Shown: in pieces, positions 3,426-60,044 of the stretch
Position numbering within the stretch: position 1 is the stretch's first letter
Layout: each line of letters starts with the position of its first letter
Sequence record: ON075799
Length of the DNA stretch: 64,000 bases
Source of the DNA: Escherichia phage vB_EcoM_TH18
Reading direction: 5' to 3' (one strand)
Notes under the pieces: model-generated
What the model saw: the letters and a program-made list of their open reading frames with translations, nothing else
Database searches by the model: none
Told to the model about the DNA's origin: nothing
Program-made: the position numbers and the translations under genes

Positions 3426-4292
3426 ATGATGAAGAATCTGACGGATTATGAAGGGTGTTTTTATTTTGATGACTATCTGCGCTCCACGAGATCTAATAAA
3501 ATAGATTTTGATTATGGTGGGGTATTCCGTGAAGCCCTTATAAGGGAAGTTGAAAGTCACCAACATGAACCAAACCCTTTAATGGAAATCGTAAAACATG
3601 CTCTACTTATGTGTTTTGATACCCGAGATAGGGAATGTTACTGGAAATATTATGTTGAAGCTGACGAGCGTGCTCACATGGCAAGTGTAAACTTAAAGCA
3701 TGAGTTTCCAAGATATGATGTTACTTGTGGGCAAATAACAATCTCTTTCCGAGGCTTTAATTATGGCATGTGTTTAGCAGGATCATTGTCTGCACGAACA
3801 CAAAAATTCCTGTCTGTTTTGTCCCGATTGGGGCATTGGGATGGTAATATGTTTTCCATAAAGGCTTCCTATGTTAGAACAAGCTCGGATATTCTCCGCA
3901 TCAGGGAGATTAACTCCAGTTGCGGATCCTTTTTTCTGGCAGGTTGTTATGGAATGCTTTACCAAAGCAAGATGTATGATTATGCAGGTCATGCTGCAAT
4001 TAAGATAACCAACACGCCAAGCGTAGAGAATAAGAAATCGCACTACTACTTGGTGTGTAATACCCAAGAAGTAATGTATCATCGTGTTGTAGAAAAAGAA
4101 CTAAAAGAGCTTATCTTGGGAGAGATCCCTACCCAGGAGGAACGCTTAATGATAGAGATGGCTGGGTACAAAGGAGAATTTTTTCTTGATTCTCTTGTAG
4201 ATTTTGATAATATCGGTATAAAACCCTTTAATATGAAAGAGGCATATGAATGGTACAATCGAAGTCTGTCCCCAGTAACATTCAAGATTTAA
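3426..4292 (+). CDS. hypothetical protein
   Basis: 288-aa ORF, RBS AGAGG upstream. Confidence 0.55.
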   Translation: MMKNLTDYEGCFYFDDYLRSTRSNKIDFDYGGVFREALIREVESHQHEPNPLMEIVKHALLMCFDTRDRECYWKYYVEADERAHMASVNLKHEFPRYDVTCGQITISFRGFNYGMCLAGSLSARTQKFLSVLSRLGHWDGNMFSIKASYVRTSSDILRIREINSSCGSFFLAGCYGMLYQSKMYDYAGHAAIKITNTPSVENKKSHYYLVCNTQEVMYHRVVEKELKELILGEIPTQEERLMIEMAGYKGEFFLDSLVDFDNIGIKPFNMKEAYEWYNRSLSPVTFKI

Positions 4293-21353: not shown

Positions 21354-23390
21354 ATGAAAGGACTTTTTTTAGCCGATACAGAGGCTGATGGATTATTAGA
21401 AGAGGCAACTAAATATCACTGCACACTTTTTAAAGAATATGCTGTAAATAACTGGGTGTTGTTTCTCGATCCTGCTCACAAGGAATATCAGAGTGCAGTT
21501 AATTTTGCACGCAGCAAGGAAGGTGTTAATTTACGAATCCTTTCTTATGATGATTTTTACTCTTGGTTACAGACCGAACCAAGAGGGATAGCAATACATA
21601 ACCTGTTCGGCTATGACTTACGCCTGTGGAAAAAACTTTCTGGGATTGAATATGATATGTTCAAAGACCCAAAATGCATGGGGACGATAGGTAATAAACA
21701 GGTAAATCTTTACGACACTCTTTCAATGAGTCGTGTTCTTTACCCAGACCGCCCATTGCCTAATGGCTGCCCAGACTCTGTATTGAACCCTGTAACAGGA
21801 AAACGTGACAGGGTTGGGCCACACGGCTTATTGGCATGGGGTTATCGTGTAGCAAACAAGAAAGTGCAGATTGATGATTGGCGTAATCAGCCATTGTGGG
21901 AATATGTAAACCGTGTATGGGAAGACGTTATCATTAACGAACTTGTGTGGAAAGCTCTTATTGATGAGTCAAATGGTACGCGATGGCCTGATGACAAGCA
22001 GTTTATGTATACTGATAAACCTCACGGGATGCACCAGATTAATTGGAAAAATGCATTACGTAGGAGAATGCTCACAGACTATTTGATGATAGAGCAAGAA
22101 ATACAGGGTGTATACTTTAATCGGGAGGAGGCAGAAAAATTAAGAGATCGCATAGATAAGATGATGCGAGAAATTGAAGAAGAGGTAGAACCACTTCTTC
22201 CAAAAAAAGAGATGACGAAATCCCAACAACCAAAATTCCCAGCTAACCCTTTTGACACAGCGGGCAATATATCTCATCATGGGTGGAATTGGTTGGAATA
22301 TAAACTTGGCTATCCTGTTAACAGAGAAGCTCTGGAGTTCAAGGCTCCACCAAAAACAGCCTTTAAGAGTAACGGGGATGTAAGTGCAGCAGGGGAGAGA
22401 TATTGCATCCAGAATGGCATTGAAGATCCGGCTTTATACGGTGATTTCATTCGTTCCCAGCGAACCAAAGAGAACACACTCGAACCTTTACCGCCAGATC
22501 TTCTAGAGAAGGCTAAAGAAGACCTTCGAAATAGAAAAATGCCAGATTTAATGGTTCCAATGAAAATCTCTAATCAAGATGATATTAAAAAATATTTGAT
22601 CAAAGATGCTGGTTGGAAACCTACACTGTGGCGTGTAAAAGATGTTACTAAGGATCAATTTAAAAAGGCCCGTGAAGATTCTGAAATCGATGTACTAGTT
22701 AAGAAGTACATAGAAGAGTTGGCAGAATCTGAATATAAATCTCTTATTCTTGAATACCTTAATGATTCAGATGAGAAATTCAACATTTCAGAACGTAAGT
22801 TTGACCATCGCCATGCATCTGAAAGGGGTTATTCAGAGATATTTAAGAAATTTCGGCGCAAGGCACGCCAGTTACCGACATCTCCTCAACTAAAAGATAA
22901 TTTTGGGCATCTGTGCCCAAATCTGGAGAAAATTGATGTGCATATGGCAAAACAGATTGTTAAGTGGCTATCACTTCGTAACAGGCGATCTGTTTTAGAC
23001 CCAATGGATGAGGATAAGACGGATACAGGGTTATTAAATCACCCTCGTTTAGACATTGACGGAAAACTCCCAGCACGTTTTTCTGGAATCACTAACACGG
23101 GCAGGTGCAAGCATACTGTTTGCGCAAACATGCCCAAGCCTGATCCGAAGGTCTTGTTGGGAAAAGAAATGCGGGGTCTTTGGACAGTCCCTGAAGGCTA
23201 CTACCTGATGGGTTGTGATGGATCTAACTTAGAAGGTATGATTGCCGCAGCAGGAGCTTTTGAGTTTGATGGCGGTGAATATTTACGTATCATGATGGAA
23301 GAGGATGCCCATGAACGAAATGCAAGAGCATACACAATAGCCGCAGGAAAGGAGGTAACACGCTCTGGAGGAAAGGGGATTACGTATGGT
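21354..23390 (+). CDS. DNA polymerase (family A, T7 gp5-like) exon 1: 3'-5' exonuclease + polymerase motifs A and first half of B
   Basis: N-term 'MKGLFLADTEADGLLEEATKYHC' like T7 gp5 'DIEANALLESVTKFHC'; motif A 'CDGSNLE'; ends '...RSGGKGITYG' then stops in all frames; ATG 21354 with AGGAGG (ORF-track start 21312 less likely). Confidence 0.7.
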
Positions 23391-24124
23391 TAATGATAGC
23401 CCCCTTACAAAGTAATTTGTAAGGCGCACCCATTGAATTGCTGGGAAGTCTGACCGAGTTATGTCGAAGATAATCAGCAGGTAAGCGAATGCTTCCCTCT
23501 TACAAAAGGAGGGAGAATATGAGTACATTTTGTTGTATAATCTGCGGTGAGCAATGTGTTAAAACTGGTAAAAATCAAAAAGTATGTCTCTCTGAAGGCT
23601 GTAAAAGAGAATATCCAAAGATAAAAACCAGAGAATATAGACGCAGAAAGGCCGAAAAAGAAAATAGGCTTGATAGAGTTGGCATAGGAAAAGGTGGTGG
23701 GCAACCTTGTGGAAAATTGTCCAAATTTTATAAAAATGGTATATCGATGTTTCGTAAGTTATCCCCTGTCATAAAGGAACAGAGAAGATACTGTAATAGA
23801 TGTAATAAAGATCTTCTTTATGCAGGTAAGGATGAATGGTGCGTTCATCATATTGACCATGACAGGACGAATAACGAAATAAGTAATTTTGAATTACTTT
23901 GTAAAAAATGCCATCAAATAGAACATAAATGTTGGGAAGCATTCGAAACTTCAACGACTAGCCGAAAGGCGTAGGGCCAAGCGGTGAGGGAAACCTCCAG
24001 TCTTTTAGACTGCCGAAGCGGTGGGCATCCTGAAAAGGATGAAGATATAGTCTGATCTGCATAGAAATATGTAGCAGTTCCTAAGAGGACGGGCATGGTG
24101 TAGCGAGCCATGTTGAACAATATG
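23391..24124 (+). mobile_element. group I intron 1 (with HNH ORF)
   Basis: splits motif B ('...ITYG | IMYGAQAPKIA'); upstream exon ends in T, insert ends in G; shares 'AATTGC-GGGAA' and 'GATATAGTCTGA' elements with intron 2. Confidence 0.55.
23519..23974 (+). CDS. HNH homing endonuclease (intron-encoded)
   Basis: 'CVHHIDHDRTNNEISNFELLCKKCHQIEH' HNH motif with zinc-binding Cys pairs; RBS AAGGAGGG. Confidence 0.65.
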   Translation: MSTFCCIICGEQCVKTGKNQKVCLSEGCKREYPKIKTREYRRRKAEKENRLDRVGIGKGGGQPCGKLSKFYKNGISMFRKLSPVIKEQRRYCNRCNKDLLYAGKDEWCVHHIDHDRTNNEISNFELLCKKCHQIEHKCWEAFETSTTSRKA

Positions 24125-24457
24125 ATCATGTATGGAGCACAGGCTCCTAAGATAGCCGCAATGCTGGGTATCCCCCTTAATAGAGCACAGGCTGTAATAG
24201 ATGCATTCTGGGATAGTAACTTCGGGTTGAAAATGCGTAGGGAGCGGTTGGAAAAATTCTGGGAGGCAAATGGGAGACGCTATATTCCAGGCATGGACGG
24301 GCGTAAAATTTGGACTCGTTCTAAACATTCTCTGCTGAATGCTTACCAACAAAACGGTGGCGCTTCATTGTTTGACCTCATGGGAGTCCTGTTCCATTGG
24401 GAATTGGTAAAACGGGGATGGTACGACCAAGGTGTCAGGAGGGTTATCTATTACCAT
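24125..24457 (+). CDS. DNA polymerase exon 2 (rest of motif B to start of motif C)
   Basis: 'IMYGAQAPKIAAMLGI...RVIYYH' ; ends exactly before 'DE' of motif C. Confidence 0.6.
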
Positions 24458-24774
24458 AAACAATATTGTGGCTTCATGCAGTAATGCATGTCGAAAACCT
24501 CTCTAATTGACGGGAAAGCTAAGTTGATTCTTATAATTTATTGTGTTATAAGGACAATATGCCAATCCGCAGCGAAGCATCCCTACGGGATGAACGTTCA
24601 ACGACTATCGAAAGCACACTAGTAATGTGTAAGTGAGTAGAGTAGGCCAGCAAGTGCGGTCCAAACGGGAGGAACCCTTGAAAAAGGGTTATGATATAGT
24701 CTGACCCACAGGAGAAATCTTGTGGCTATGCACGTAACGGTGCGGGGGAGAGTAGCGAACTCCTTGAACTGGTG
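24458..24774 (+). mobile_element. group I intron 2 (ORF-less)
   Basis: splits motif C 'YYH | DEIQV'; ends in G; conserved elements shared with intron 1. Confidence 0.5.
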
Positions 24775-25074
24775 GATGAGATACAAGTACAAGTACCGGA
24801 AAGATTTAAATCAATAACGGAGTATTCCAGTTTAGATGCTGCACAAAGCTATGTAGATATGATGCTTGAAAAAGGTCATCGTTTCGACGGACATTATGTG
24901 AAAGCAGGTAAAGTTATTGTTGAACCTGATGTGTACGGGAAATACAGGATACTGCATTGCCCAGTAGGAGAGCTTGCAACAAAATGTGTAGAAAAAGCAT
25001 CTAAGATAATGGGGCTTCCCGTTTTAATTACAGGAGAATATCTTTGTGGTTATACTTGGGCAGATTCCCACTAA
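24775..25074 (+). CDS. DNA polymerase exon 3 (motif C to C-terminus)
   Basis: 'DEIQVQV...' completes HDE; C-terminus '...GYTWADSH' like Pol I-family terminal His. Confidence 0.6.
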   Translation, partial: DEIQVQVPERFKSITEYSSLDAAQSYVDMMLEKGHRFDGHYVKAGKVIVEPDVYGKYRILHCPVGELATKCVEKASKIMGLPVLITGEYLCGYTWADSH

Positions 25075-25083
25075 AAATGGTAA

Positions 25084-25105
25084 GGTGCTGAAAAGCACCT
25101 TTTTT
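25084..25105 (+). terminator. intrinsic terminator after DNA polymerase
   Basis: GGTGCT-GAAA-AGCACC followed by TTTTTT. Confidence 0.6.
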
Positions 25106-25120
25106 GAAAGAAGAGGTGGT

Positions 25121-25480
25121 ATGAGAGTAAAAGGAACCCAGACAACAACACAACTTATTGATGTTGAAGTAAACGACTCTGAAATCAAAAGAATCATAGA
25201 TAGCCAAGACAAAATGATCTTGGCAGAAGCAATTCAACAAAAACTTTTAAACAAATTCTTCAAAAGATGCCTCCCTTCAATAGACGGGGAGATTATCGTA
25301 AGGAAGGACGCTAAGACTGGCAAGATCTTCGTCCATGTTGATGCAGATTGGGATTACCATAATAATGTTGGCGTGGAGAAAGAAATCAGGCCATTGACAC
25401 ACGATGAGGTTGTATTGTATGAAAACATCCTAGGACTACCTGAGTATATAATGTCTTTAGATGTTGAATGGGCTAACTAA
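25121..25480 (+). CDS. hypothetical protein
   Basis: ATG 25121 after RBS AAGAGGTGG. Confidence 0.5.
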   Translation: MRVKGTQTTTQLIDVEVNDSEIKRIIDSQDKMILAEAIQQKLLNKFFKRCLPSIDGEIIVRKDAKTGKIFVHVDADWDYHNNVGVEKEIRPLTHDEVVLYENILGLPEYIMSLDVEWAN

Positions 25481-25546
25481 GAACACTTGCCATAGGCAAT
25501 CTGTTTGTGTATCATTTCACTACCTAACACTTTGTGGAGAATTTCT

Positions 25547-25966
25547 ATGAGAAATGTAAAGATACATGCAATACCAAGTGACTATTTATCGCCACCTGCA
25601 CAAGGGAGTTCCTTCTGTACAGATATGGTTTCTTATGATGACTACAAGAAACTGGAGGGTATGTTCATTGACGTAGCATCAGAAAATGCACTCCTAAAGA
25701 AGTTCATTCGTGAGAGTTGTTATGTTTTCGATGGCGAACAATCAGATATTTTGGATGCATATACCCCAGCAGATCAGTCACCTTTGATGCCTAGTTTGGA
25801 AGCCACAAATAAGTTCCCCACAGAGATGATGGCTCAAGGTGTTCATATGTACGGTATGCTCACAATCCGTATCGGAGAGCAGGAGCAAGAAGAAAGCATC
25901 ATCTATGCTGGTAAACAAGCCCTTCTCTATGCAGAACAACTTCGTAATGGAGATTTCGAACAATGA
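25547..25966 (+). CDS. hypothetical protein
   Basis: ORF from ATG 25547. Confidence 0.45.
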   Translation: MRNVKIHAIPSDYLSPPAQGSSFCTDMVSYDDYKKLEGMFIDVASENALLKKFIRESCYVFDGEQSDILDAYTPADQSPLMPSLEATNKFPTEMMAQGVHMYGMLTIRIGEQEQEESIIYAGKQALLYAEQLRNGDFEQ

Positions 25967-26454
25967 ATTTTGATATTACAAAGCTACATGTCTTACTACA
26001 AAGTTTTTACCTTTCTTACGATGCTTGGGTAAAAAGAGGAGCACCAGATTCTGATATTTTCTCTCGTGACTGCGGTTTGTGTGCCAATTTATATGATTGG
26101 TGTAATGTGAATCATTTGTCCGGCTACAGAGATGACCTACTGGACATGCTGCATGATGATTTCGAAAAAGCGGGGCTAGACAAAAGATTGCCTTTCAACC
26201 AGACAAGCCTCTATAGTAGAGAAATGTTTAAAAATACTTGCCACGAGAACAAAGAACGCTTGCAATGGGTACAAGACAATATAGATTTGTTCAAGAAGGA
26301 GCAAGGGGCTTTAAGAAATAAGTATGAAACTTTGAGTGCTGCTGCTGAAATGGTTGTGTACACATGGGCAAGTGCGGACAGTGAACAATTTGAAGCAAGT
26401 ATGGATAAAAGCGTTTCTGTATTACGGGATGTATTATTCAAAGTGGAAGAATAA
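25963..26454 (+). CDS. hypothetical protein
   Basis: 163-aa ORF, ATGA overlap with upstream gene. Confidence 0.5.
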   Translation: MNFDITKLHVLLQSFYLSYDAWVKRGAPDSDIFSRDCGLCANLYDWCNVNHLSGYRDDLLDMLHDDFEKAGLDKRLPFNQTSLYSREMFKNTCHENKERLQWVQDNIDLFKKEQGALRNKYETLSAAAEMVVYTWASADSEQFEASMDKSVSVLRDVLFKVEE

Positions 26455-26456
26455 TT

Positions 26457-26720
26457 ATGCCAAAACTAACAAAAGAAGAAAAGAAGTGGTTAAAAGACCT
26501 TCAAAGTATCATTGATCGTTGTCCCTCCCCAAAAAAGATAGGTTTTTATACCATAGGGGATAGGCATATTTATCTGTACGATTTACGCCGTGAAGATGAA
26601 ATTTTTAAGGCACTGGACTCTGGGACGGCATTTGATTTTTGCATGGCTGTTGAAAACCTTGACGCTTTGTTTGAAGAGAGTATTACATTTCCCTCGGTAG
26701 TGGCAAGTACAGCAGGATAA
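26457..26720 (+). CDS. hypothetical protein
   Basis: 87-aa ORF. Confidence 0.45.
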   Translation: MPKLTKEEKKWLKDLQSIIDRCPSPKKIGFYTIGDRHIYLYDLRREDEIFKALDSGTAFDFCMAVENLDALFEESITFPSVVASTAG

Positions 26721-26728
26721 GGTGACTT

Positions 26729-27034
26729 ATGAAAAAATTTACAAAAGAGCAGCTACTTAAGCATGTTCGCTCTAATGTTGACCATCTGGAAGACCTCCAA
26801 CAGCGTGTTGGTGAGGCTGGAGATGAGTATAAGAAGATTTTTGATATGGTATCTCTTGATTTGGAGATTGCTAAGATCGCATTAAATGCATTAGAAGCAA
26901 AACCGATTGGTGCTTTCCATATCACAAAGCAGCAAGTCGATGGTACAAGCGACTATATCAAAGATGGAGAATGGCCCATTGATAACGGAACAATTGAAGT
27001 ATACACTTCACCACTTGCTTTTACAGCGTGTTAA
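26729..27034 (+). CDS. hypothetical protein (paralog family 'IAL.ALEAKP')
   Basis: shares 'LEIAKIALNALEAKPIG' motif with 27405..27938. Confidence 0.5.
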   Translation: MKKFTKEQLLKHVRSNVDHLEDLQQRVGEAGDEYKKIFDMVSLDLEIAKIALNALEAKPIGAFHITKQQVDGTSDYIKDGEWPIDNGTIEVYTSPLAFTAC

Positions 27035-27052
27035 TAACAAAAGGGAGCGAGG

Positions 27053-27178
27053 ATGTTCAATAATTTGCCCAGTACTGGTTTTTTCTTGTTTCTTGGGGTT
27101 GTTTGTGCAGTTATTGGTTGGGCAGCTATTGAGTCAATTCTTTGGCTGCTTTCTTTCATACACATAACTATTTATTAA
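27053..27178 (+). CDS. small hydrophobic ORF (41 aa), not in ORF track
   Basis: strong RBS GGGAGCGAGG before ATG 27053; predicted membrane peptide 'MFNNLPSTGFFLFLGVVCAVIGWAAIESILWLLSF...'. Confidence 0.35.
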   Translation: MFNNLPSTGFFLFLGVVCAVIGWAAIESILWLLSFIHITIY

Positions 27179-27186
27179 GGATTGGT

Positions 27187-27402
27187 ATGTTAATAACAAA
27201 GGATAAATACATGAACGGACAAATCTCAATTACTCGACCTAACACAGGTGATGATGACAAGATAAGAATGGCTATTCGTCTGGAGAGAGGAAAAACAATA
27301 ACTGCTCTTGTTACCCCAGAAAATCTTGCATTGGCACTGACCGGAAAGTCAGAACTCCCCGTAGAGCTAGATGTGAGAAATGTTGAGATTAAGGTGAAAT
27401 AG
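27187..27402 (+). CDS. hypothetical protein
   Basis: ATG 27187 after AAGGA; ORF-track TTG start at 27142 less likely. Confidence 0.45.
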   Translation: MLITKDKYMNGQISITRPNTGDDDKIRMAIRLERGKTITALVTPENLALALTGKSELPVELDVRNVEIKVK

Positions 27403-27404
27403 GT

Positions 27405-27938
27405 ATGAGCATTCTTACTAAAGAGAGATTGTTGACAATCAAGCAGTGGCGCGAAACATACGGACTTGGTAGTAACGTTGTACTGCCAGCAGAAGAGGCG
27501 CAAGAACTGGCACGAATTGCTCTGGCATCGCTGGAAGCGAAACCTGTTGCATGGACTGATGAGGAACTGCGTGATGTTAAGCAGTATGGTTTCGGTGAGA
27601 TATTTCAGTGTCCGCCAGATAAATATGCGGACCCGCGTCGTGTAATCTCGCTGTATCGCGAGCCGCCAACACTTACAGTGCCGAAAGTGGAACCGATAGT
27701 AGTAAACGACGACATGGCATACGCATTCCATCATGCACTGTCAGATTCATCGCTAGGCGCTGATGAGGTAGAGGAAATTAAAACTGGGTTGCGTGCAGCC
27801 TTTGCCAACGTCACCACCCAGCCACCATTGATAGTGCCTGATGAAATCGAGCCAGACGATAGCAATACGTTTGATTATGTTGATGGCTGGAACGCCTGTC
27901 GCGCTGCCATGCTCAAAAAGAAGGGGATGAATCAATGA
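27405..27938 (+). CDS. hypothetical protein, GC-richer host-like codon usage (paralog family 'IAL.ALEAKP')
   Basis: 'ARIALASLEAKPVAW' motif; frequent CTG/GCG/CGC codons unlike flanking genes. Confidence 0.5.
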   Translation: MSILTKERLLTIKQWRETYGLGSNVVLPAEEAQELARIALASLEAKPVAWTDEELRDVKQYGFGEIFQCPPDKYADPRRVISLYREPPTLTVPKVEPIVVNDDMAYAFHHALSDSSLGADEVEEIKTGLRAAFANVTTQPPLIVPDEIEPDDSNTFDYVDGWNACRAAMLKKKGMNQ

Positions 27939-28018
27939 CCTGGCCTGAAGCATTCACAACGGTAGGGGTTGTAATGGCTGTAGCATTCGCAGTGTACTCA
28001 GTTTGCCGATGGGGGTGA
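27935..28018 (+). CDS. tiny hydrophobic ORF (27 aa), not in ORF track
   Basis: ATGA overlap with upstream stop; 'MTWPEAFTTVGVVMAVAFAVYSVCRWG'; stop 2 nt before next ATG. Confidence 0.3.
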   Translation: MTWPEAFTTVGVVMAVAFAVYSVCRWG

Positions 28019-28020
28019 TA

Positions 28021-28218
28021 ATGATAAAAGAACAGCCAGAAAATGATACTCAAAAATCACGTTTTCAGCAGTGGTTGGAACAACAACATGATCAGATTGA
28101 TGTGGATTGTGGTTGTGTTTCTATTGAAACATTCATGTATTGGTTACAAGTGGCGTATGAGGCAGGAGGAGATTTAAATGAACAATGGTTATCAACCTGT
28201 CATCTCGGAAATGGCTAA
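28021..28218 (+). CDS. hypothetical protein
   Basis: ATG 28021 with RBS GGGGGTGA. Confidence 0.45.
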   Translation: MIKEQPENDTQKSRFQQWLEQQHDQIDVDCGCVSIETFMYWLQVAYEAGGDLNEQWLSTCHLGNG

Positions 28219-28584
28219 TGTTTCTCTTCCACCTTCGTCACCAAGCCTTAAAGCAGCAACCCAACAACCAGTTGCTTGGCGGTATCGCTACGTGAAAAAA
28301 AAAGCGTTACGGACTCTCAGGGGGAGCCGTGGGTTGGTGACTGGAAATATGTACCGACAAAAGAAGATTGTAACGACAGACCAAACTACGAAATTCAGGC
28401 GTTATACACCACACCTGTAACCTTAGAAGGACTGGTTAAAGCAGTGCGCTTTTATGAACAGGTAAAGCGCGAGAATCCACCAGTCGAAACAGGAGCATGG
28501 AAAGACGCTGTTGACTGGGTGCTCAAAGAGGCATATAATGCAGTCAATAAAACAACACAGGACTTATCAAATTATGAAAATTGA
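28178..28584 (+). CDS. hypothetical protein requiring a -1 frameshift or slippage at an A9 tract (28295-28303), or frameshifted pseudogene
   Basis: Upstream frame 'MNNGYQ...PVAWRYRYVKKK' (RBS GGAGGA) continues sensibly only in the -1 frame 'SVTDSQGEPWVGDWKY...'; downstream ORF's own start is TTG without RBS. Confidence 0.45.
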
Positions 28585-28801
28585 CTACCAAGAATTACGT
28601 AAGTTAGCAGAGATAGCAAGAGATGGTGGTACTTATCAAGAAATAGCGGACTACCGTAGTATGGTAACACCGGAGGTTGTATTGTCACTTCTTGATGAAC
28701 TTAAGAAGTTAGAAGACACAAATATTGACGCTATGTGTCAAATTGCAGAACTTAAAATTAATATCAAGTTGTTGAAGGGAGAGGTGGTTAGCCATGACTG
28801 A
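28574..28801 (+). CDS. hypothetical protein (paralog of 29842..30075)
   Basis: 'MKIDYQELRKLAE...PEVVLSLLDEL' vs 'MTIDYQALREAAE...PETVLELLDEL'. Confidence 0.45.
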   Translation: MKIDYQELRKLAEIARDGGTYQEIADYRSMVTPEVVLSLLDELKKLEDTNIDAMCQIAELKINIKLLKGEVVSHD

Positions 28802-29213
28802 GAAATCAACGCATATTGATGAAATCAATCGTCTTGGCGCTAAATGTGCAACTCTTTTAGAAGAGAAATACCATGATAAAAAGAAAATCTCCGAACTTGC
28901 GACTCGTTGTGCAGAGCTATTAGCTGAAAATATAGTGCTGCACAGGGCAATTAAAGCTGTCCACAATGTTGCTGATGACTCCAGTGGGGTTGCCGATTGG
29001 CATTTGAATGGCGATATTTCTGCATGGGAAGAGGTTCTTCCTGAAATTTATGATATCAAGACCTGGGCCACCGATGCTTTCCTGGCTGAAGTGAGGGCGC
29101 AGGGTGTGGAGATGTTCTCAGAAAAATTCGGAGGTGGCACTCCGCTATCCAATATGGTCAAAGAGGTTGCGGCTGATTTTGCGGCGAAGCTTCGCAAAGG
29201 AGGCAACCAGTGA
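28794..29213 (+). CDS. hypothetical protein
   Basis: 139-aa ORF. Confidence 0.5.
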   Translation: MTEKSTHIDEINRLGAKCATLLEEKYHDKKKISELATRCAELLAENIVLHRAIKAVHNVADDSSGVADWHLNGDISAWEEVLPEIYDIKTWATDAFLAEVRAQGVEMFSEKFGGGTPLSNMVKEVAADFAAKLRKGGNQ

Positions 29214-29854
29214 ATAACCGCTTTTACATGATGTGCTTGCGTGAAACTGTGGGTAATAACGCCTCATTCCATTGCCATAACGGCAATGGTTACAGTTCTG
29301 ATATCGATCGCGCTCATGTTTACACGCTGGAAGAAGCCCAAAAAGCCTGGAATTGTGGACGAGATATCGATCAGCCTGTTTGCGCTGATAGCGTGGATGC
29401 AATGGCTGTGTGGCACGTTGATTGCCAGTACATCCCCACAGAAAGCCTGATTGAGTCAGATTGCACTGCGTATGTGGCCTACAAAAAAGGTAGCTGGAAC
29501 GGCAACGATGTTTACTGGCTTCAACACGGTGGATTGCCAACAGATGACTTCAGTAAAGCGACCATCTTTAGCGTCGCCAACAAAAACGAACCAGGAATAG
29601 TTTGGTTGCCATTTTCCATTGCTGATGCAGCAAAGCGTCGGACGTTCAATATCAATAACTTTAACCGCAGAACAATGGTTCAGGGCGCAGGTTTGGTCAT
29701 GCCTGACTGGTTGAAAGAGCAGAACAGAAGAAAGAAGTCGCGAAGCGGGAAGGTGCGTTGGAATTGTCCGCATTGCGGAAAAATAACCTGGCAGTACAGC
29801 CCATATGATTTTGAAGGCTGTAGTGATTACAACTGTGAAGGATGGCGAGAATGA
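29210..29854 (+). CDS. hypothetical protein with C-terminal Cys-rich zinc-ribbon-like segment; host-like codon usage
   Basis: 'WNCPHCGKITWQYSPYDFEGCSDYNCEGW'; GC-richer codons. Confidence 0.5.
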   Translation: MNNRFYMMCLRETVGNNASFHCHNGNGYSSDIDRAHVYTLEEAQKAWNCGRDIDQPVCADSVDAMAVWHVDCQYIPTESLIESDCTAYVAYKKGSWNGNDVYWLQHGGLPTDDFSKATIFSVANKNEPGIVWLPFSIADAAKRRTFNINNFNRRTMVQGAGLVMPDWLKEQNRRKKSRSGKVRWNCPHCGKITWQYSPYDFEGCSDYNCEGWRE

Positions 29855-30075
29855 CAATTGACTATCAGGCACTGCGTGAGGCGGCGGAACGTGCAATTCC
29901 AGCAATGGAACGCCTGTTAATGCTGCCAGTTGATGATGATTTGTTAAGTGAACAGGAACTTAAAGATTACGGTGTGGATATTGATGCGCTCAACGCCTTC
30001 AAATTTCTGGCCGGACCAGAAACCGTGCTGGAACTGCTGGATGAACTGGAAATTAAAGATGGAGATTGGACATGA
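29842..30075 (+). CDS. hypothetical protein (paralog of 28574..28801), host-like codon usage
   Basis: shared N- and C-terminal motifs; GC-rich codons. Confidence 0.45.
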   Translation: MARMTIDYQALREAAERAIPAMERLLMLPVDDDLLSEQELKDYGVDIDALNAFKFLAGPETVLELLDELEIKDGDWT

Positions 30076-30347
30076 CAAACAAGAAGTTAACAGGCGAACA
30101 ACTTGTTGAGAATCTTAAAGAGAAACTTTGCAACAACCCCTCTTTGGAAGAGAAGTTGTTACTTAAATATTTCGAAGATAATGTGGATATGCTCCCTGTA
30201 GAGTATGCTTGCCCAGAGGGTTTCCACAAAGCATTTCGACAAGTGGATGTATGTAAGAAAGGCTATCAAGATATGGTTATTTGGAGTATTCTTTCAGGAG
30301 GGGATTCTGGAAGGATTTGGGAAGTTATAGAAGAGTTTTTCTCCTGA
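30072..30347 (+). CDS. hypothetical protein
   Basis: ATG 30072 (ATGA overlap) after GGAG. Confidence 0.45.
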   Translation: MTNKKLTGEQLVENLKEKLCNNPSLEEKLLLKYFEDNVDMLPVEYACPEGFHKAFRQVDVCKKGYQDMVIWSILSGGDSGRIWEVIEEFFS

Positions 30348-30354
30348 AGTTGTC

Positions 30355-30540
30355 ATGAAATTTTTATCTGCATTAAGTATTCTCTTCATAGCATTAAAGT
30401 TGTGTGAGATTATAGACTGGTCTTGGTGGTTAGTTCTTGCCCCTCTATACCTACCATGGGCAATTGTTGTTGTTCCTCCTTTAATTATAGCAGTTACAGC
30501 TTTTGTGCTATCTTTTCTTCCAGAAAAAGATAAAAAATAA
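30355..30540 (+). CDS. small membrane protein (two predicted TM helices)
   Basis: 61 aa, 'LSILFIALKL' and 'LVLAPLYLPWAIVVVPPLIIAVTAFVL' hydrophobic segments. Confidence 0.45.
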   Translation: MKFLSALSILFIALKLCEIIDWSWWLVLAPLYLPWAIVVVPPLIIAVTAFVLSFLPEKDKK

Positions 30541-30542
30541 TC

Positions 30543-30571
30543 TTGACATAAAGAACCTCATGGTGTAATAT
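30543..30571 (+). promoter_or_regulatory. strong sigma70-type promoter
   Basis: TTGACA-N17-TAATAT, 31 bp upstream of ATG 30603. Confidence 0.6.
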
Positions 30572-30602
30572 GTAATACTCAGCAACCTTGTAAGGAATAG
30601 AT

Positions 30603-30944
30603 ATGTCTAAAGAAAAACAAACACCTGAAAACAAAGAAGATATCCGTTTTCTTGATCTTGATGAAGGGCAATTTGGAACAATTGTATACTTGTCCAGCGC
30701 TAGCCACCAGATGGGAACAGTAATAGGGTCGAAAGAAATTCGAGAAGAGATGCTAAAGCTCATCCAAAGTGGTAACTATAAAACTGTAGAGGATGCAATT
30801 TCATGGATCCGAGGACACCGTGACAATTTGTTGAAATTAAACACTGCTTCCGCTTTTGCATTGAACCTGCTAAATCAAGTTGAAGATTTAGTGGTAGATA
30901 AGATGTTGAGCGTCGGAAACGAAACTGCTGAAGGCGTTAAGTAA
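30603..30944 (+). CDS. hypothetical protein
   Basis: 113-aa ORF behind strong promoter, RBS AAGGA. Confidence 0.55.
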   Translation: MSKEKQTPENKEDIRFLDLDEGQFGTIVYLSSASHQMGTVIGSKEIREEMLKLIQSGNYKTVEDAISWIRGHRDNLLKLNTASAFALNLLNQVEDLVVDKMLSVGNETAEGVK

Positions 30945-30958
30945 TAAAAGGAGAGAGA

Positions 30959-32131
30959 ATGAGCGTAATCAATGAATTTAAGAATCCAATCAACGGAAAA
31001 GTTGATTATTTTGCAAAAGGTTTTATCAAGTATGTTAATATTCGTCCAGTGAAAAACGCTGACGCAGACGGTATCCGACGTACCCATATCCCTGCTCGCA
31101 ACGGGCAACCAGCTAAAGTTATTGAGGCTACGCACTCAATCAGTTTCCTGATGCAAGAAGTTGACGACAATAACAACGTTATTGACCAACAAAGTCAAGG
31201 TGAATGGATTTCCATGGGTGAGAAAAAACTTCACCCAAACCATGCAGACAAAATTCAGGTAAAATTTGATTCTGGATACAAAGATATTGTGGCGGGGATG
31301 GTTGTTTCTTTCCCTCTCAAAATTACTAAAAGTGGGGATAAAACGTATACAAACGGCACTTTAAACGGAAAGACTTTCAGCATTCTCGATGAAAGTAAAG
31401 TTGGTCAAAGTGCTCCTCGCCAGCAATCTTCTACTCAATCTCCTGCAAATGCCCAAATTAAAGGCACTAAAATTTATGGTGAGATTGCTGCAATCGTTGG
31501 CAATGTGGTGACAGTTAATGATGAGAAGAATGGTCAAGGAAACCTTGTCCTAACAGATGAGCAATTGGCGCAAGTTACGGTAGGTGGTCGTGTCACTGCG
31601 ATTGTTAACCTAAGTGATGGTACGGTCTTAAGTGGGTTTAAAGCCTACGGTCCTGCTGGGCAGACTAAGAAGTCATCTGGCGGCTATGATGCTTTAGGTG
31701 TTGCTTGTGGGCACGGCATCAACGGTGTGAAGGAACTCATTAAAGCTGGTTTTAAGATTGAGGATCGTCTCTCTGCTGCGAAAATGGTTCACAACGCTAC
31801 AGTAGCTATGAAGGCTTTTGTGGCAGAGAGAACAGGAAAAGATGCGGAATCTAATGCGGTAGGTGCTAGTGCTGGTAATGCTATCTTAGTAGCTTGTGCT
31901 TTGTATCATCAAGCCGATAAACTAACAGAAGATGGTATTCTGAATGCCGCTAAAGATGTTTACTTAACGCTGTCAGAGCCGTTTTACGAGTTCTTATCTA
32001 AAGGCGATGGAAAGACACAACAAGAGAACAAACAGGATGCTAAGGAACCTTTGAACAGTTCTAACAGCGATATTCCGAATATGGAATCGCCAGCACCTGA
32101 GTTTGACTTCGATGACAGCATTCCTTTCTAA
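30959..32131 (+). CDS. single-stranded DNA-binding protein (SSB-like)
   Basis: acidic C-terminal tail '...EFDFDDSIPF' like E. coli SSB 'DFDDDIPF'; Gly/Gln-rich linker. Confidence 0.55.
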   Translation: MSVINEFKNPINGKVDYFAKGFIKYVNIRPVKNADADGIRRTHIPARNGQPAKVIEATHSISFLMQEVDDNNNVIDQQSQGEWISMGEKKLHPNHADKIQVKFDSGYKDIVAGMVVSFPLKITKSGDKTYTNGTLNGKTFSILDESKVGQSAPRQQSSTQSPANAQIKGTKIYGEIAAIVGNVVTVNDEKNGQGNLVLTDEQLAQVTVGGRVTAIVNLSDGTVLSGFKAYGPAGQTKKSSGGYDALGVACGHGINGVKELIKAGFKIEDRLSAAKMVHNATVAMKAFVAERTGKDAESNAVGASAGNAILVACALYHQADKLTEDGILNAAKDVYLTLSEPFYEFLSKGDGKTQQENKQDAKEPLNSSNSDIPNMESPAPEFDFDDSIPF

Positions 32132-32156
32132 AAGTAACATTTGTTAATATAAAAAA

Positions 32157-32182
32157 GGGAGCTTTTAGCTCCCTTTTCTTTT
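32157..32182. terminator. bidirectional intrinsic terminator at convergence of early and late blocks
   Basis: GGGAGCT-TTT-AGCTCCC flanked by A6 and TTTTCTTTT. Confidence 0.6.
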
Positions 32183-59030: not shown

Positions 59031-60044
59031 TTATTCGAAAGTACCAGTAGAACGTACAACCAGTTCAGGACGGGTGTTAACCGTCAAGAAGGAAGTTTCA
59101 GATTCAACTTTCTCTTCACGCAGATATGCAGAAGATTTGTACCACAGATACAGTTCTTCAGCTACAGTGTTTGCTTCACGAGCATCATCTGCCGGAGCAT
59201 AATGGATCTGGAACATATCATCAATACCTTGCGGCAGGATGTATGCTTCACCATCTGGGATATATCCAGAGATGTCTTCAATGTAGGTTACGTTCTTGTG
59301 AACAAACATACGGTTGTTGGCATTCTCAGAACCCATACCCAGACGACGACGCAGCGGCTCTTGGGTAGAAGAATAATACTGGTATGCATTCATGATCAGC
59401 GGATGGGCGATCAGAGCAGAGAACCATTTACGAGAAGCCAGAACAATGATATTGTAGTTATTACCGTTATCACCTGCATTGTCGATGATGTATGCGCGAG
59501 CGTCTTTCTCAATCAGGTCAGACGGGTCAACCGCAACATCTGTGAAGTTGATATTGGCAGTGTGCTGGGTAACTCCCCACTCAGTAAAGTAGTTGTACTG
59601 TGCGGTAGGATCTTGTGGAGACCATGATTTACCCATGATTGCCTGAACCATTGCTTTTTCTTTCAGTTGTTCATGAGAAACGCGAATACGCTTAACTACG
59701 CGAGCAACTACGTCTTCAACAGTTCTAGGAGCGTCCGTAGTGAAGTATTTACGGAAGTTCTGAACATCTGCCGCAGTGATCTGACGATCCAGAGGGAAGA
59801 ACGGAATGTTGAAGTTCTTGATTTGGGCTTTTTCACTACCAACATAGTTACGTTCTCCACCACGACGACGTGCAGGAATATCCGCAACAATTTCGTCAAC
59901 ACGCTCAACACGAGCAATTGTGGTTTCACCATGATAAGCGGTGAACAGATCCATGTTGGTAATCAGGCGATACTGACGTGGAACAAGTTCCAGTGCTGCG
60001 CCAAGGTTTACGATTTGAAAGTCGTTAGTCTGTACTGCTGCCAT
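59031..60044 (-). CDS. major capsid protein (lambda gpE-like head module)
   Basis: 337 aa, preceded by decoration/scaffold-like genes, followed by strong terminator. Confidence 0.5.
   Translation of the reverse strand: MAAVQTNDFQIVNLGAALELVPRQYRLITNMDLFTAYHGETTIARVERVDEIVADIPARRRGGERNYVGSEKAQIKNFNIPFFPLDRQITAADVQNFRKYFTTDAPRTVEDVVARVVKRIRVSHEQLKEKAMVQAIMGKSWSPQDPTAQYNYFTEWGVTQHTANINFTDVAVDPSDLIEKDARAYIIDNAGDNGNNYNIIVLASRKWFSALIAHPLIMNAYQYYSSTQEPLRRRLGMGSENANNRMFVHKNVTYIEDISGYIPDGEAYILPQGIDDMFQIHYAPADDAREANTVAEELYLWYKSSAYLREEKVESETSFLTVNTRPELVVRSTGTFE

Follow-up and report, generated by a model that had tools for sequence, protein, structure and literature searches.

In a 64,000-nt window of Escherichia phage vB_EcoM_TH18 (sequence record ON075799; "the window" is this whole stretch), we examined an island of small accessory genes around positions 27405–30075. 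In the genus Avunavirus, the slot that houses it is bounded by the DNA polymerase and a conserved gene of 390 aa and consists of ∼4.5 kb of small, tightly packed, co-directional genes. We conclude that this slot of a lytic phage is very probably a patchwork of small accessory genes acquired from prophages and P1-like plasmids in several waves. This is an ordinary, well-documented kind of temperate-to-virulent gene flow, and no new system is involved.

The phage is a lytic rV5-like myovirus of the genus Avunavirus. Its identity and lifestyle follow from the 100% match of positions 26400–30400 to Escherichia phage 18-1-2 (OK136180.1, 79,447 bp, "partial genome", Vequintavirinae, Avunavirus), whose coordinates are also those of the window, and from co-linearity with the lytic phage Av-05. 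The sibling records 19-1-2 and 24-2-1 are identical over the same stretch, and Av-05 is the only other close relative (87% coverage, 92% identity). GenBank already labels some open reading frames (ORFs) of the island "EaA" or "Ea22". New here are the boundaries and a recombination junction, age tiers with a gradient, the donor pool, the variability of the slot in Vequintavirinae, a third paralogue pair and a frameshifted gene. The features are listed below, and genes are named by their first position.

25547–25966, + strand: P22 EaE-like gene, AT-rich, phrog_492/368; the left-most recognisable accessory gene of temperate type
26729–27034, + strand: "ALEAKP" module gene, AT-rich, phrog_660/5117/60/3323
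27187–27402, + strand: small gene, phrog_1222, GC 0.394; travels with the next gene in prophages
27405–27938, + strand: mosaic protein of 177 aa with an EaA N-terminal module; first GC-rich block
28021–28218, + strand: small AT-rich gene, phrog_924, 65% amino acid identity to P7 and SJ46 ORFs
28178–28584, + strand: frameshifted phrog_660-family gene, A9 run at 28295–28303, ORFs 28178–28420 and 28276–28584
28574–28801, + strand: Ea22-like N-terminal ORF, 75 aa, AT-rich, phrog_250/368 N-terminal positions (E = 2e-11)
28794–29213, + strand: Ea22/EaE-like C-terminal ORF, 139 aa, GC-richer, phrog_492 and phrog_368 positions 100–239
29067–30052, + strand: newest imported tier, ∼1 kb, with 97–100% identity to prophages of E. 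coli or to P1-like plasmids
29210–29854, + strand: 645-nt gene for an HkaG/Upf87.6-like protein of 214 aa, phrog_2457, C-terminal Cys cluster; core of the newest import
29842–30075, + strand: truncated, chimeric Ead/Ea22 N-terminal ORF, 74–77 aa, Pfam PF13935
30038–30054, no strand: right recombination junction, imperfect microhomology of ∼15–17 nt, located by three-way comparison of the window, the HS prophage and Av-05

Temperate relatives and layers of imported DNA

Nucleotide similarity to temperate elements is confined to 27197–30052, with none in 25000–27196 or 30053–31000. A search against enterobacterial prophages, proposed in the earlier note on this DNA, returned homologues of 75–100% nucleotide identity across that range. 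They fall into four tiers of identity.

Tier i, 29067–30052: 97–100% identity to present-day prophages of E. coli or to P1-like plasmids, ∼1 kb
Tier ii, 27402–27913 and 28262–28532: ∼88–90%
Tier iii, 27197–27402: 84%
Tier iv, 28062–28166 and 28675–28765: 75–78%

In the first tier, 29193–30052 forms a single 860-nt piece with 98.7% identity to a prophage of E. coli HS, 29199–29879 (681 nt) is 99.85% identical to the P1-like phage SJ46, upf87.6 of P7 matches the window from 29199 over 687 nt with 99.56% identity, and 29067–29213 (147 nt) shows 100% identity to a P22-like prophage carried by E. coli WS4437A-1. These matches directly show a recent acquisition from an enterobacterial prophage, as had been proposed, while the host core genes that had been allowed as a source are not involved. 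The word "recent" applies to ∼1 kb only, as gene 27405 is an older import (∼89–90% identical to known alleles) which is also present in Av-05.

Of 5426 complete E. coli genomes, 2263 contain pieces of 27180–30100, which are found at 3488 places on chromosomes and 520 on plasmids. Individual island segments are found in 893–2263 of these genomes, on chromosomes and plasmids, in a conserved PL-operon context. No place in the 5426 genomes covers 80% of the island, and this combination of genes is thus specific to the phage. In prophages, the homologues lie in the early-left operon, between the recombination/anti-RecBCD genes (erf/abc) and xis/int, in the order DUF2737 – Ea22 – small ORF – 645-nt gene – Ea22 – small gene – DUF551 protein – Eag – xis. 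Two of these adjacencies are kept in the phage: 27187 is followed by 27405 with the same 2-nt spacing, and the 645-nt gene is followed by an Ea22 gene with overlapping stop and start codons. The 645-nt gene is directly followed by an ead/Ea22-like gene in all seven of the examined temperate loci that carry it. The apparent source of the DNA is the early-left (PL) "ea/exo-xis" accessory region of P22-like and lambdoid prophages, together with the equivalent block of P1-like phage-plasmids. Every island gene with traced relatives belongs to a family that is otherwise found in this region or block (EaE-like, EaA-N-module/DUF551-N-module, phrog_660, Ead/Ea22 and HkaG/Upf87.6).

Judging from this sequence pattern, the phage would have gained the genes in several waves, each time recombining with prophage DNA during growth in lysogens. 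Gene boundaries may have served as points of exchange, as may short, conserved linkers with motifs like ...ALEAKP(V/I)..., and older imports would subsequently have drifted to the AT-rich composition of the phage, whereas the newest (29067–30052) would not. The substitution patterns fit such a progressive drift. Between 28021–28218 and P7/SJ46 (75–76% nucleotide identity), an A or T in the window faces a G or C in the partner at 19 sites, with 5 in the reverse direction (p = 0.007). A similar AT shift is seen for 28675–28765 against a P1-like plasmid (78% identity; 16 versus 2 sites, p = 0.001). Residues 46–97 of the gene 26729 product are 81% identical to a DUF551 protein of the P22-like phage vB_EcoP-611R6 (72% at the nucleotide level), and GC at third codon positions (GC3) is 0.31, compared to 0.46 in 611R6. 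No AT/GC substitution bias is observed in the newest tier. The 3-kb stretch may be regarded as a natural amelioration series, in which copies of the same families show ∼100%, 90%, 85% and 76% identity to the temperate versions and the AT shift changes accordingly.

The 214-aa product of the 645-nt gene matches phrog_2457 over its full length (residues 1–214, E = 1.9e-119). It is identical in amino acid sequence to SJ46 gp095 and 99.5% identical to P7 Upf87.6, and its match in IME10 is annotated hkaG. Its 144 homologues of ∼214 aa have invariant cysteines at C186, C189 and C204. The family is widespread, with at least 144 clusters, and is found in prophages, P1-like plasmids, Yersinia and Acinetobacter. 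An AlphaFold2 model of the protein has a predicted local distance difference test (pLDDT) score of 92.9, and the predicted fold has no match among solved or viral predicted structures. We found no relevant literature on hkaG, upf87.6 or the protein accessions. The gene is 95.9% identical to the Av-05 allele, compared to 99.85% for SJ46, and the Av-05 allele is at most 96.7% identical to any complete E. coli genome.

The ORF that follows, 29842–30075, matches Pfam Ead_Ea22 (PF13935/IPR025153) over profile positions 2–80 of 139 (62.1 bits against a cut-off of 27, E = 1e-16), and its product is 93% identical to an Ea22-like protein of the E. coli A39 prophage. The earlier note's statement that its second paralogue family resembles Ea22 proteins is therefore correct for this ORF. 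Ea22 proteins consist of a short N-terminal segment, a long central coiled coil and a variable C-terminal domain (PMC10834534); they are tetrameric and favor lysogeny (PMC7093339, PMC10834534). The phage ORF (77 aa) does not have this three-part architecture, as the C-terminal domain is missing, and it is located between the DNA-polymerase module and tail genes, not between recombination genes and xis. It is made up of ∼70 prophage Ea22 codons and a last ∼7 codons from a backbone ORF ("...EIKDGDWT"). All E. coli matches of the newest piece end at 30052, and homology to Av-05 resumes at 30038. Identity to the prophage stops and identity to Av-05 starts within 30038–30054.

The simplest reading of these comparisons would be a recent replacement in the lineage of the window. 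The import would have comprised an HkaG/Upf87.6-like gene in full and, from the Ead/Ea22 gene behind it, the first ∼70 codons, replacing ∼2 kb still present in Av-05. The left side of the exchange may have used a pre-existing homologous gene or gene-boundary sequence. The right side is likely to be an illegitimate microhomology junction at ∼30038–30054, which would have created the truncated, chimeric Ea22 ORF.

Modules and paralogue pairs

The temperate-type genes extend further left than the island's start at 27405 in the earlier note, to ∼25547. The product of gene 25547 is 97% identical to a "putative eae protein" of Av-05, and it can be aligned with P22 EaE (165 aa) over residues 1–93 (40% identity, E = 1e-11), leaving the C-terminal part unaligned; the gene has no DNA match to temperate elements. 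Gene 26729 is probably an old, ameliorated copy. Together with gene 27187, the start of gene 27405 is 84% identical to the A39 prophage at the nucleotide level (27197–27547), in which the 2-nt spacing mentioned above is also found.

The 177-aa product of gene 27405 is itself a mosaic. Positions 27402–27672 are 90% identical to a P1-like plasmid and 27690–27913 are 89% identical to SJ46, and the N-terminal 51 residues are 82% identical to a DUF551 protein of the A39 prophage. The product has no match to DUF551 or any other Pfam family. Similarity to P22 EaA (317 aa) is restricted to residues 1–96 (34% identity, E = 2e-4), and the two have only an N-terminal module in common. The counterpart in Av-05 (Av05_00123) has 220 aa as a result of a 129-nt insert, which adds a second "(K/E)PV(A/G)W" module. 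The synonymous divergence (dS) between the two copies is 0.42, two to five times that of most neighboring backbone genes, and the two alleles may have been exchanged separately.

Genes 26729 and 27405 have been placed in one "ALEAKP" family. BLASTP aligns them only over a 16-aa motif (63% identity, E = 9e-5), and both match phrog_660, 5117, 60 and 3323 over most of their length. The DUF551 protein of 611R6 consists of the N-module of 27405 and, after "...ALASLEAKP", the C-module of 26729, joined at ALEAKP|IGAFHI and followed by further domains including DUF551. This architecture indicates that the "ALEAKP" motif is a module joint in a shuffled protein family, similar to the mosaic architecture described for Ea22 (PMC10834534). 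Separately, an 18-nt near-repeat (89% identical) is present at 26957–26974, inside gene 26729 ("IKDGEW"), and at 30052–30069, at the right junction ("IKDGDW"); it could be due to chance or be a recurring joint sequence.

Gene 28021, labeled "Ea22 protein" in GenBank, has no match to Pfam Ead_Ea22, and the label looks wrong. The N-terminus of gene 28178 had also been assigned to the "ALEAKP" family; membership in phrog_660 is confirmed, although the ORF is really the 5′ part of a gene broken at the A9 run. Addition of one A restores a product of 135 aa that matches phrog_660 (E = 4e-36) better than either fragment. The gene is intact in Av-05 (128 aa). The near-identical contig JZOQ01000142.1 reads A10 at this place and its 135-aa ORF is unbroken, whereas the three GenBank phage records and contig JZNW01000013.1 have A9. 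Compared to its homologue in an E. coli UMNK88 prophage (88% nucleotide identity), the window has 2 additional nt in the A run. The A9 break may be a sequencing error, a polymorphism or a sign of slippage-dependent expression. The sequence A_AAA_AAA is also a −1 slippery heptamer, and slippage there would yield the same 135-aa product.

Genes 28574 and 28794 cover phrog_368 from end to end (positions 2–125 and 100–239), and they resemble the two overlapping halves of a split Ea22-like gene. The first scores 19.9 bits against Pfam Ead_Ea22, below the 27-bit cut-off. The first ∼35 codons of the second are common to Av-05, with divergence starting from 28897, and its positions 28947–29213 are 86–89.5% identical to the ends of prophage ead/Ea22-like genes. 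This 3′ part is of recent prophage origin. The product of 28794 aligns with P22 EaE over residues 35–93 (33% identity, E = 1e-3), again with the C-terminal part unaligned.

Two paralogue families, each with an AT-rich and a GC-rich copy, had been described in the earlier note. The copies do share protein families, but they are remote and are separate acquisitions rather than duplicates. Genes 28574 and 29842 (36% identity, E = 1e-6) both match phrog_250/368. A third AT-rich/GC-rich pair had been missed: genes 25547 and 28794 (30% identity by BLASTP, E = 7e-6) share matches to phrog_492 and to phrog_368 in its C-terminal half. An all-against-all BLASTP with a large nominal database size missed these paralogue pairs, and pairwise and profile comparisons were needed for their detection.

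It is very unlikely that the pairs arose by duplication inside the phage genome, with one copy then diverging in composition. The presence of three families, each with an AT-rich and a GC-rich member, within 4.5 kb would agree with such an event, as would the 77% identity between 28574 and 29851 over their first 30 nt. These short common 5′ ends of two Ea22-like ORFs were all that a repeat search returned; neither direct repeats nor att-like sites flank the island. Partners in the window, however, are only 30–36% identical or have only the 16-aa motif in common, while their temperate relatives are closer (93% for 29842 and A39, 82% for the N-terminus of 27405 and A39, and 81% for residues 46–97 of 26729 and 611R6). 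As each copy in the window resembles a temperate homologue much more than it resembles its partner, local duplication is ruled out on these comparisons, and the pairs are best explained as separate acquisitions of shuffled modules.

Related phages, composition and other explanations

The window is co-linear with Av-05 at 93–97% identity, with three exceptions.

Difference 1: a 129-nt insert in the EaA-like gene of Av-05
Difference 2: replacement of 28897–29213
Difference 3: replacement of 29845–30038, where Av-05 has ∼2 kb with five other genes

The Salmonella phage PVP-SE1 (Seunavirus), of the sister genus, has the same flanks: the DNA polymerase upstream, and downstream a DUF7238 gene, a small membrane gene, phrog_7310, the 390-aa phrog_4477 gene and a bidirectional terminator. 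Homologues of genes 30072, 30355, 30603 and 30959 are present, but none of the genes 25547–30075 is found in the same slot of PVP-SE1, which contains unrelated genes (an NMN adenylyltransferase, a PnuC-like transporter, an HNH endonuclease and others). Thus, the comparison with related phages suggested in the earlier note finds the island genes absent from the PVP-SE1 slot and partly absent from Av-05. With its atypical composition, 97–100% identity to donors, absence from relatives and junctions, the island has the features of a horizontally acquired genomic island.

Could host prophage or P1-like plasmid reads have been merged into the phage scaffold? Such an assembly chimera or contamination is highly improbable. 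The record is a scaffold-level partial genome, the newest segment is 99–100% identical to E. coli elements, and the three identical GenBank phage records come from one study. However, in Av-05, an independent isolate whose genome is complete, the EaA-like gene and the 645-nt gene occupy the same positions. Together with its flanks, the chimeric Ea22 ORF is also found on JZOQ01000142.1 (99.8–99.9% identity, with SNPs and indels) and on JZNW01000013.1. Furthermore, the right junction contains only ∼15 nt of imperfect microhomology, which is too short to mislead a k-mer assembler.

The composition of the window identifies the same region. Overall GC is 0.402 (mean of 500-nt sliding windows 0.402, sd 0.028), and the maximum of all 64 kb, 0.508, is at 27446. 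Windows with GC of at least 0.47 occur in three places only: 23908–24475, 27233–28134 and 28862–30052. The first of these, in the DNA polymerase/HNH area, is the sole such stretch outside the island. Compared to 79 backbone genes (GC 0.394 ± 0.025, GC3 0.337 ± 0.051), four island genes are GC-rich.

27405–27938: GC 0.491, z = 3.9
28794–29213: GC 0.457, z = 2.6
29210–29854: GC 0.471, GC3 0.498, z = 3.1
29842–30075: GC 0.466, z = 2.9

A codon score, defined as the log-likelihood ratio of E. coli use (37 K-12 ORFs) versus phage backbone use, ranges from −0.02 to +0.12 for these four genes, compared to −0.29 ± 0.12 for the backbone and +0.32 ± 0.11 for E. coli. The GC-richer island with host-like codon use reported in the earlier note is therefore confirmed by sliding-window GC, by the z values of the genes and by codon scores. 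The GC-rich DNA is not one island, but two blocks separated by AT-richer genes (28021–28218, GC 0.374; 28574–28801, GC 0.373). The description of the codons as CTG/GCG/CGC-rich holds for some genes (CTG accounts for 7 of 16 Leu codons in 27405 and 8 of 13 in 29842), but not for 29210 (2 of 8).

The reverse direction of transfer, from genes native to Avunavirus to prophages, is no less improbable than an assembly chimera, although virulent-temperate gene flow is possible both ways (PMC8136500). Evidence for a temperate-to-lytic direction comes from the E. coli/prophage-like composition of the segments inside a 40% GC genome, from their occurrence in hundreds to thousands of E. coli genomes (the 893–2263 counted above, in chromosomes and plasmids and with PL-operon context), from the truncation of Ea22 in the phage, compared to full-length versions in prophages, and from the absence of the genes from the PVP-SE1 slot.

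Least credible of all is that the GC-rich, host-like codon use results from selection for high expression or amino acid content and not from foreign origin: only the major head gene 59031–60044, which is not foreign, scores above the four genes in the backbone, and as an internal control it indicates that codon bias alone is no proof of foreign origin, but the GC-rich genes are 89–100% identical to prophage DNA, synonymous sites included, and GC is raised at all three codon positions and in short intergenic and overlap stretches. The head gene is on the − strand and belongs to phrog_29, and its E. coli-like codon use is presumably due to expression-driven bias.

Several points weigh against acquisition in waves from temperate elements, or against the function proposed for the genes so acquired. 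Among the sampled donors, none has a contiguous 29067–30052, the best single piece being 860 nt, so that we infer a single event for the newest tier. The 645-nt allele either replaced an older resident allele or was acquired separately by the lineages of the window and Av-05. AT-rich copies could stem from AT-rich donors, since the substitution asymmetry is unpolarised, with no outgroup. None of ten island proteins matches the PADLOC-DB defense models at E ≤ 0.01; in scans of the island proteins with Pfam, NCBIfam and PADLOC, Ead_Ea22 and DUF7238 were the only hits; and sequence searches of four proteins against solved structures gave nothing significant. Promoter-like sites are not enriched, so that gene order is the sole basis for the assumed expression timing.

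Known systems, possible function and genomic setting

The PL ea/exo-xis region of P22-like and lambdoid phages (P22 eaA, eaD and eaE; lambda ea22, ea8.5 and orf61/63/73) contains the same gene families as the window, namely EaE-like, the EaA N-module, Ead/Ea22, the 645-nt HkaG-like gene and the phrog_1222 gene. It is also similar in its small overlapping co-directional ORFs, conserved adjacent pairs and mosaic, module-shuffled architecture (PMC10834534). In contrast, the genes of the window are in a lytic myovirus, without int/xis, recombination or repressor neighbors. Their order is permuted, one Ea22 is truncated and another is split, and an AT shift is seen in some members. The C1-controlled accessory block of P1-like elements (P7 upf87.4–upf89.5; SJ46 gp093–gp096) is related through 29199–29885, which is 99.6–99.9% identical to upf87.6/gp095, through the N-terminal module of 27405, which is 89% identical to the start of P7 upf89.5, and through the 65% identical homologues of 28021. 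P1-like elements have only fragments in common with the window, and none covers 80% or more of the island.

Recent exchange of genes between temperate and virulent phages has been documented at scale, mostly for large virulent phages (Moura de Sousa et al. 2021, PMC8136500). The transfers in that survey likewise consist of a few near-identical genes in otherwise unrelated genomes with a large virulent partner, and a route through infection of lysogens fits both. The survey found a preference for metabolic, packaging and virion genes, whereas the window has received small early accessory genes, repeatedly into one slot.

The ratio of non-synonymous to synonymous divergence (dN/dS) between the window and Av-05 is 0.03–0.31 for all island genes, which indicates that they encode proteins under constraint (purifying selection). 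The exo-xis genes of lambda and the ea genes of P22 are early genes that are not essential and that modulate the physiology of the host as well as the choice between lysis and lysogeny (PMC7093339, PMC10834534). By analogy, the island proteins are most likely dispensable early factors that modulate the host or a prophage, although this is a weak inference. A more speculative and rather doubtful proposal is that the slot is a "sampling" site, which refreshes early accessory genes of prophages for use against lysogens or host defenses. It is hinted at by the acquisition of the same three families at least two times each, by purifying selection and by the unmatched, confidently predicted 214-aa fold. 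If so, the zinc-ribbon-bearing HkaG/Upf87.6 protein could be a new host-takeover or counter-defense factor, the truncated Ea22 (N-terminus and part of the coiled coil) could be a dominant-negative partner of prophage Ea22 tetramers, and the A9/A10 tract of the phrog_660 gene would be a slippage-controlled switch.

Whatever the function of the proteins, the patchwork of temperate genes would represent a clean, datable transfer of DNA from prophages or P1-like plasmids to an obligately lytic phage. Av-05, a lytic representative of the genus, has been characterised as a biocontrol candidate. Lytic phages of therapeutic type can apparently pick up prophage DNA on lysogens, and production hosts should therefore be free of prophages. 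The ea/exo-xis genes, especially that for the 214-aa HkaG/Upf87.6 protein, appear useful outside lysogeny, which argues against a purely lysis-lysogeny role, and are good targets for functional work.

The island is the variable 3′-terminal part of the rightward replication-gene cluster. It ends a long co-directional gene array that runs from the replication module (helicase and split DNA polymerase) to a terminator at 32153–32177, beyond which tail genes converge from the opposite side. Promoter and terminator scans gave counts not above shuffled controls, except for this strong terminator. Located where the early/replication and tail clusters converge, it resembles a terminator hairpin, with a stem of 11 bp flanked by T-runs on either side, and bidirectional terminators are annotated at the equivalent site in PVP-SE1. 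The DNA polymerase gene is split into 21354–23393 (phrog_17 positions 673–1071) and 24113–24484 (positions 1072–1185), with an HNH endonuclease ORF (23519–23974) between the two parts; Av-05 has additional HNH genes there. The near-identical contigs of the phage, JZOQ01000142.1 (GCA_002972075.1, 79.8 kb) and JZNW01000013.1 (GCA_002972255.1, 35.5 kb), belong to two further genome assemblies that are apparently not phage records, which suggests carry-over or a carrier state in cultures.

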